Source: Octopus vulgaris
Lineage: Eukaryota
Direction: 5' to 3'
Assembly: GCA_951406725.2 (NCBI GenBank)
Contig: OX597834.1
Location: forward strand, 29,636,001 to 29,700,000
Length of the DNA: 64,000 bases
The notes beneath the pieces are model-generated. The model did no database searches. It was not told where the DNA came from and saw nothing but the letters and a program-made list of their open reading frames with translations. A program made the position numbers and the translations under genes. Positions 11,786 to 55,479 of the stretch are shown piece after piece; position 1 is the stretch's first letter; every line of letters starts with the position of its first letter.

Positions 11786-11993
11786 TGACCGCGTGTGTAC
11801 CGTTGGCGATTTTTTTTCCTCCATCTTCCCTTCTCTGGATCTTTCCTTTTCTTATGTTTCTGACGAAGAGCTCCGCTCGAAACGTTAAACCCTCCTTCTT
11901 CCCTTCCTTCCTGAGCGTCCAATAATACTATATTTGTTCTATGTCCTCGCGTTGTTGTGTTTTCTCTTTGTGTTTTCATGTTTGGATTAACTT
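11786..11993 (+). mobile_element. Penelope-like terminal-repeat fragment ending at (TA)n
   Basis: Pyrimidine-rich island with a canonical minimal hammerhead; shares ttcctgagcgt...taata with 29195-29390. Confidence 0.75.
11856..11890 (+). ncRNA. Minimal type I hammerhead ribozyme, canonical core
   Basis: gttt CTGACGA a gagc tcc gctc GAAA cg TT aaac: all core nucleotides present, palindromic ACGU stem III remnant typical of dimeric PLE hammerheads, GUU triplet (predicted cut after 11886). Confidence 0.8.
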
Positions 11994-54218: not shown

Positions 54219-54311
54219 GTTTAGAAATCTAACCACATATAGTGAACGTGTAGCATTATTTATTTTTGTGTGTGTGTGTGTGTGTACATACATACATATA
54301 TATATATATAT

Positions 54312-54609
54312 TACGGAGATGTACTTGCATAGCAAGTGATTTGATCTGAGATCGTGTGCTGGAACGAAAACAATTGCAGCGTGGAAGGTGTTTGCAAGCC
54401 ATTTAAGAAACACACAAAAGCCGTTCGATTCATTTCAACATTTAAGTTTAATTTGTCAAAATATTTTCGTCGCTATAAGACCGCGACCTGTTCACTGACA
54501 AAAATCCGTGCTGCATCTTTGACAAATTAAACTTAAATGTTGAAGTGAATCGAACGGCTTTTGTGTGTTTCTTAAATGGCTTACAAATACCTACCACACT
54601 GCAATTGTT
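54312..54609. mobile_element. Penelope-like insertion with 92 bp inverted duplication, both ends at (TA)n
   Basis: Arms 54369-54460 and 54518-54609; the spacer carries a hammerhead on the minus strand. Confidence 0.78.
54452..54502 (-). ncRNA. Minimal type I hammerhead with G3-C8 swapped core (GUGAACA)
   Basis: tttgtca GTGAACA g gtcgc ggtcttata gcgac GAAA atat TT tgacaaa: perfect 7 bp stem I, perfect 5 bp stem II, palindromic stem III remnant. Confidence 0.72.
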
Positions 54610-54642
54610 GTATATATATATAAATATATATATATATACACA

Positions 54643-55479
54643 CAGAGTGCAATGGGTAAATTGTTGCCATTATATATTTTTAATTTACATATGAACATTG
54701 TTTGTTTTTTATTCTGTCAACTACACAGTTTAGTAGGGCCAGCTGGGCACCGTAACTGAGAAAGACAGAACCATGATGCAATTCACTCTGCCAGAAATTT
54801 GGAAACAACATGCTGTACTGCTAAGCATTCATGCAGGAAGCTCAGAGTGTTTGGGTGTCAATCTGAGGACATGTACCGAGAGTGATAAAAGCCATACATC
54901 CAGTCAACTGCATGGTGTTTGGAGTGATCACTAGTGATGGCGACGTTATGCCTCCATTCATCTTTCCACACAGGCCTACATGAAGTGGTGGAGGAGGCAG
55001 TGCTGCTCTGGGTCAAGAAGGTAGCTGCTGGAAGAATTAGTGGCTGGCAACTGGACCCTGCACCATGCCACACAAGCAGGAGAACCCAGTCATAGGTCTC
55101 AGACAATTTCTGCAACCATACCACCCATAAAATCTGGCCATCTAACTCCACAGACTGCAAACCCTTTGACTATCATGTGTGGGGTGCAGTCGAGTGAGAG
55201 ACCAACAAAACTTCTTGCAACACCAAAGATGAGCTCAGGGCAAGGATTATGGCAGTATTCACTAACTTAAATAAGGAGACCATCCAGAAGAGTTGCCGGA
55301 GATCCCAGAGTCATCTGGAGGTGAAGCCATGGTTGAAGCCAATAGCAATTTTATTGAATAAATTTCCTCTTTAGTATTTCAAGATGTTTCTATGTAACTT
55401 TGGTAAATGTATGTTAAAACGAGACAGTGTTATTTTCAATTTTGTGTAATTTGGGCAACAGTTTATTCACTGCACCCTA
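54643..55479 (+). mobile_element. Internally deleted DD37D (maT) Tc1/mariner transposon with pseudogenised transposase
   Basis: Imperfect ~26 bp TIRs (cagagtgcaatgggtaaattgttgcc / ggcaacagtttattcactgcacccta, then TA). Translation HPVNCMVFGVITSDGDVMPPFIFPH...WQLD-37 aa-DYHVWGAVE*ETNK...RARI with stops and frameshifts. Confidence 0.88.

Follow-up and report, generated by a model that had tools for sequence, protein, structure and literature searches.

The window analysed here, 64,000 nucleotides of Octopus vulgaris DNA, carries on its minus strand (54452..54502) a motif built like a minimal type I hammerhead ribozyme, with a core that reads GUGAACA instead of CUGANGA. The pair between positions 3 and 8 forms in the active fold, and while single changes abolish cleavage, the double change partly rescues it (PMC8495972 and PMC11167929, each in part); partial rescue by C3G/G8C was obtained in vitro for the hammerhead of Poseidon, a Penelope-like element (PLE) of Anolis (PMC11167929, in part). 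This raises the question of whether the swapped G3-C8 pair is a defect of one copy or the standard of a ribozyme family, and whether such a hammerhead still cuts.

When hammerhead positions are numbered by analogy with PMC4209133 (in part), the 5' strand of stem I (7 nt) lies at 54502-54496 and its 3' strand at 54458-54452. The core strand GUGAACA occupies 54489..54495, with G3 at 54495 followed by U4, G5, A6 and A7, C8 at 54490 and A9 at 54489, and a single extra G follows A9 at 54488. Stem II (54469..54487) consists of 5 bp, 54487-54483 paired with 54473-54469 and including G10.1-C11.1, and its 9-nt loop differs among subfamilies. G12-A13-A14-A15.1 are found at 54468-54465, the palindromic stem III remnant AAUAUU at 54465-54460 and U17 at 54459, so that GAAA through U17 covers 54459..54468; the predicted cut would fall between 54459 and 54458. 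The consensus residues U4, G5, A6, A9, G12, A13, A14, A15.1-U16.1 and H17 are all present, and in place of C3 and G8 the motif has G3 and C8, which keep Watson–Crick complementarity. The features described for PLE hammerheads (PMC4209133, in part) are likewise all present: G10.1-C11.1, an extra base after A9 and a palindromic stem III remnant.

The isolated motif folds as a hammerhead at -14.5 kcal/mol (z -2.1), but 6 of 200 shuffled sequences folded equally well and folding alone is therefore modest evidence. A structural descriptor allowing any Watson–Crick 3-8 pair, with at least 5 bp in stem II and at least 7 bp in stem I, matched this site only within the window and gave no match in 60 shuffled windows, in which the bases were permuted in blocks of two. 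The sequence and the folding together bear out the fold and the coordinates proposed in the first-pass annotation, including the 7-bp stem I, the 5-bp stem II, the GAAA and the stem III remnant. That annotation had also expected consensus-based searches to overlook the motif. Indeed, Rfam (E<=10) returned no hammerhead family among the matches listed for the motif region, and a literal CUGANGA descriptor would miss the whole family to which the motif belongs, referred to below as family A. The Rfam matches listed in the window were microRNA-like only and lay on simple repeats and on the palindrome around the motif, and none reached its gathering score. TA and CA simple repeats are dense across the window and account for every ORF of at least 150 aa and for the microRNA-family Rfam matches. 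The window holds one more minimal hammerhead-like motif at 11860 (+), of the canonical C3-G8 type and with stems of 4 bp, which resembles motifs in loci L109, L125 and L152.

The window motif represents the pseudo-LTR hammerhead of a young PLE with a reverse transcriptase (RT) and a GIY-YIG domain. A GIY-YIG frame was found at a locus bearing two head-to-head motifs, and a search with this frame gave 150 scored matches among 7,786 candidates. The parent ORF contains RT motifs (read by eye), a CX3CX2C linker and, at the C terminus, a GIY-YIG domain (E 1.8e-5, above the cut-off), and RVT_1 is weak in relatives. Five young copies are 98-99% identical to the parent over the last 1,500 nt. In one parent copy, L146, hammerhead, leader and ATG directly precede the ORF and the predicted cut lies 56 nt from the ATG, which identifies the window sequence after the motif as leader plus the first 30 codons of the ORF in a pseudo-LTR layout. 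L146 and L118 show the pseudo-LTR in partial tandem, which, with the inverted 5' copy and the optional tail of the loci described below, is the layout of EN+ PLEs. The pseudo-LTR layout and the RT-GIY-YIG ORF support the earlier suggestion of a minimal PLE hammerhead. The CX3CX2C sequence before the GIY-YIG domain agrees with the CX2-5CxxC linker of the Neptune or Nematis clade, for which the tree described below holds no named reference. With the Neptune/Nematis EN+ PLEs (PMC8557442, in part) the parent element shares the RT, the linker, the C-terminal GIY-YIG domain, partial tandems, the inverted 5' copy, the tail and TA-repeat targets, but the tail measures about 60 nt in family A and 30-40 in those PLEs. 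The Anolis element is Poseidon-type, whereas family A has a Neptune/Nematis-like, Zn-finger-like linker (PMC11167929, in part). The best named relative is P0001 (Octopus vulgaris; 58%), which is encoded at 100% in the genome that we searched (G000, 2.8 Gb). A search for related PLEs in metagenome contigs gave 1 weak locus among 600 candidates.

The copy in the window is a 5'-truncated pseudo-LTR segment (54311..54517, minus strand) comprising hammerhead, 5' UTR and the first ORF codons, and it is 93% identical to L146. On the same strand the 56-nt leader from predicted cut to start codon spans 54403..54458, codons 1-30, which in parent copies lead on to the complete ORF, span 54313..54402, and a tail of about 60 nt (54311..54368) is present on one arm only; copies finish at either of two fixed 3' ends (mechanism from PMC11167929, in part). 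An inverted, further truncated second copy of 92 nt (54518..54609, plus strand) is 95% complementary to 54369-54460, so that the hammerhead sits between 92-nt inverted arms separated by a 57-nt spacer, a setting absent from the first-pass annotation. TA-rich simple repeats adjoin both sides, at 54285..54310 (3' flank, the insertion target) and at 54610..54644. In a transcript across the palindrome, stem I is predicted to form with probability 0.0 and its 3' strand to pair with the inverted arm with probability 0.94-1.0, which suggests that the window copy is probably inert. It is likely a dead insertion, formed by a short cDNA with an inverted arm that would sequester stem I. In the parent context, stems I and II are predicted to form with probability 0.6-1.0.

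Among 27 pattern-sampled loci an inverted second arm was found in 18 and none in 9; the arms were unequal and the junction variable. Their 3' ends fall into two clusters about 60 nt apart, in agreement with the two-start-site account of the tail (PMC11167929, in part). TA repeats adjoin 36 of 57 loci, and a non-simple flanking direct repeat of at least 7 bases occurs at 20 of the 57. The sampled copies are single or head-to-head. The head-to-tail arrays of short hammerhead units that mark a non-LTR retrozyme were not seen among them. Of 37 segment starts at the 27 loci, 26 lie within 10 bases of an AG preceded by a pyrimidine-rich stretch that is also branch-point-like, much as at a 3' splice site; such an AG lies upstream of stem I in L146, at a distance of about 14 nt, and at 54515-54517 in the window. 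Short copies may derive from a fixed start or from RNA that had been spliced.

The G3-C8 core is the standard of family A and not a private mutation of the window copy. The 261-base motif region gave 1,526 first-look candidates in G000, and a family pattern with wildcards at positions 3, 7 and 8 gave 6,147 matches (reversed pattern: 0), of which 95 of the first 100, counted by eye, had both G3 and C8. Among 147 copies from fetched loci, a non-random sample chosen by similarity, pattern or protein with a few possible duplicates, G3 was present in 143 and C8 in 139, and U4, G5, A6, A9, G12, A13, A14, A15.1-U16.1 and H17 were each present in at least 143. Variation is concentrated in loop II, where the positions equivalent to 54475, 54476, 54479 and 54480 differ in 28-62% of the 147 copies. 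Older family A subfamilies, with 80-87% protein identity, kept G3-C8 while loop II changed. Contigs of four sequencing runs with four organism labels cover the motif and list, for 54486-54502 and 54457-54468, no variant that reaches 5%.

Inserted copies do change at position 8. C8 was changed in 228 and intact in 4,095 otherwise matching copies (5.3% of 4,323), compared with 71 copies (1.7%) for a stem I C that shares the CAG context and served as control. The changed base was G in 45 of the first 100 listed for position 8 and in 9 of the 71 for the control. C8 (equivalent to window 54490) thus has about three times the change rate of the control C and a roughly tenfold excess of G; it is the sole unpaired C of the core, and deamination in single-stranded DNA is our guess. 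By eye, G8 copies occur in every loop type, and on this ground a G3.G8 intermediate subfamily was rejected. They are poorer in the youngest loop type (9 of 45, versus about 18 of 71 for the control and 43 of 100 intact copies), which fits mutation after insertion. Fifteen family A copies were changed at both sites; none was a C3-G8 revertant, no other paired subfamily was found inside family A, and A3-U8, which takes two transitions, occurred in 6 of the 15, with unrelated flanks in the 5 that were fetched.

Two sister families have other bases at this pair. P0001 belongs to family B, in which direct pseudo-LTRs enclose complete ORFs of 1,312 aa and the motif is C3-G8, with position 9 being C among the young copies and A in one that is older; its pattern gave 4,350 matches, and the first 100 rows contained 98 with C3 and G8, 89 with C9 and 8 with A9. 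A very young full-length family B PLE with a C9 hammerhead is found at L113-L142, L176 and L180. Family C has U3-A8 (3,035 pattern matches; U3-A8 in 94 of the first 100). At L105:4684 (-) and 4870 (+) an unrelated-looking U3-A8 hammerhead-like motif occurs in a head-to-head palindrome. A tree built with FastTree from the C-terminal 460 aa of 99 sequences (10 from G000, with broken copies read with X, and 89 that were those of 107 relatives covering 400 residues) places families A, B and C together in a single clade at 50-60% identity (support 0.987, and 1.0 for B with C), and the motif lies 56 (A), 101 (B) and 72 (C) nt before the ATG of homologous ORFs.

We aligned 13 chosen motif rows (6 from A, 3 from B, 4 from C). 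The 11 inner pairs were intact in 141 of 143 cells. Both sides changed in 7 of 15 pairs, versus 0-1 in slid controls; 30 of 500 shuffles reached that count, but since the rows are related and stem from three lineages, the shuffle control does not give a probability. Compensatory changes between families A, B and C occur in stems I, II and III. At the outer four positions of stem I, full pairing is confined to family A. Positions 3 and 8 are Watson–Crick complementary in all 13 rows, with three pair types in three lineages and at least two changes at this pair, and U4, G5, A6, G12, A13, A14 and U16.1 are invariant. Judged from these alignments, the natural covariation is good, though it comes from three lineages only.

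With inverted arms, a spacer, TA-rich flanks and many short copies, the palindrome also resembles a MITE of a DNA transposon with a chance likeness to a hammerhead. This is hardly credible, because equal terminal inverted repeats and a fixed interior are absent, 9 of the 27 sampled loci lack an inverted arm, 20 of the 57 loci have a non-simple flanking direct repeat and the long copies continue into the RT-GIY-YIG ORF, which refutes it. Another explanation is that the hammerhead is dead and that a master element acquired and fixed two changes by chance. By our estimate two chance pairings at 3-8 alone would occur about 1 time in 16, and in inserted copies the mutation frequency of position 8 is about three times that of the control C. 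Nevertheless, this also seems very unlikely, as the stems change compensatorily between families with inner pairs unbroken and the older A subfamilies retain G3-C8 while loop II changes.

A more serious possibility, though still an unlikely one, is that the fold is conserved while cutting is very slow or dispensable, and that the motif serves as a protein-binding, translation or transcription element at the RNA 5' end or is a passenger. A9C did not stop family B, as young C9 copies spread, which counts against catalysis. All counted family A copies, thousands of them, were reverse-transcribed across an intact, uncut site. Moreover, cleavage was dispensable for insertion of another PLE in vitro and no RNA-seq ends were seen at its site (PMC11167929, in part), and the function of hammerheads in PLEs is unclear, Naiads having spread without one (PMC8557442, in part). 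Against this explanation stands the 3-8 pair, which is no part of the secondary structure and stays Watson–Crick in three forms, together with the invariant core residues listed above. As this pair would form in the active fold, its retention in three paired forms points to selection on catalysis.

That the fold is under selection is well supported by the sequence comparisons. The first-pass annotation had argued for selection from the kept pair of this one copy; the C3-G8 and U3-A8 sister families strengthen that argument, but because inserted copies mutate freely at C8 it can be made for master lineages only. We consider it probable (about 0.68) that in the full-length parent elements the motif retains the active fold and cleaves the RNA 56 nt ahead of the start codon, most likely in dimeric form or assisted by the element's own protein. 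In tandem elements such a motif would cut read-through RNA shortly before the ORF, which would trim or circularise these transcripts. PLE minimal hammerheads are believed to cut as dimers that pair via the stem III palindrome, and in vitro they are slow (PMC4209133 and PMC6765202, each in part), and the Anolis PLE hammerhead required PLE protein (PMC11167929, in part). The calculated energies (double-hammerhead -25.4, best cofold -30.6, two monomers about -27.6 kcal/mol) do not support the dimer, as the double-hammerhead is less stable than both alternatives. The UUU triplet had been regarded as a weaker NUH, but it is not unusual, because U17 is common in PLE hammerheads. A passage in PMC3884650 (in part) carries the implication that C17 can trap G3; U17 would avoid this G3-C17 trap, but young B and C families also have U17, which is thus at most permissive.

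Metazoan PLE minimal type I hammerheads (Cervera and de la Pena 2014, PMC4209133, in part) share with family A the pseudo-LTR site, a base between positions 9 and 10.1, G10.1-C11.1, the palindromic stem III remnant and the common U17, and the contact between stem I and loop II is often unrecognisable in PLE motifs (same source, in part). Unlike them, family A has a G3-C8 core and G as the extra base where their consensus is H, and three types of 3-8 pair occur here within one clade. The portion covered of the supplementary alignment of PMC4209133 contains no G3-C8 row. Natural covariation at 3-8 was likewise described among core variants by Perreault et al. 2011 (PMC3088659, in part), whose text section reports U3-A8 only, and a Schistosoma family with natural U3-A8 appears in PMC4209133 (in part). 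The C3G/G8C double mutants (PMC11167929 and PMC8495972, each in part) have the same core pair but were engineered, whereas here it is natural and family-wide. Our literature search for natural G3-C8 gave engineered cases only, and surveys of PLE hammerhead variants may report one; the parts of PMC7229834 and of a 2026 retrozyme preprint that were covered added nothing further. Natural U3-A8 and laboratory rescue by G3-C8 were therefore already known, and a natural, family-wide G3-C8, as read from sequence, appears to be new.

At stake is the role of PLE hammerheads, which cut poorly in vitro (PMC4209133, in part) and of which one was not required for insertion. The G-C, C-G and U-A pairs that three sister families have at 3-8 amount to a natural compensation experiment on whether catalysis matters, and near-intact young ORFs in two of the three are ready test substrates. 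Descriptors fixed on CUGANGA would miss the three patterns in their prevailing forms (G3-C8, U3-A8 and, in young family B, C9), which together have about 13,500 matches in this genome; some PLEs reported to lack hammerheads may therefore carry such variants. Tentatively, and at somewhat less than even odds, family A may be the first natural and active G3-C8 hammerhead family; one PLE radiation would then have sampled three Watson–Crick forms of a pair confined to the active fold, which would imply in vivo selection for catalysis in PLEs and thousands of ribozymes per genome that escape consensus-based searches.
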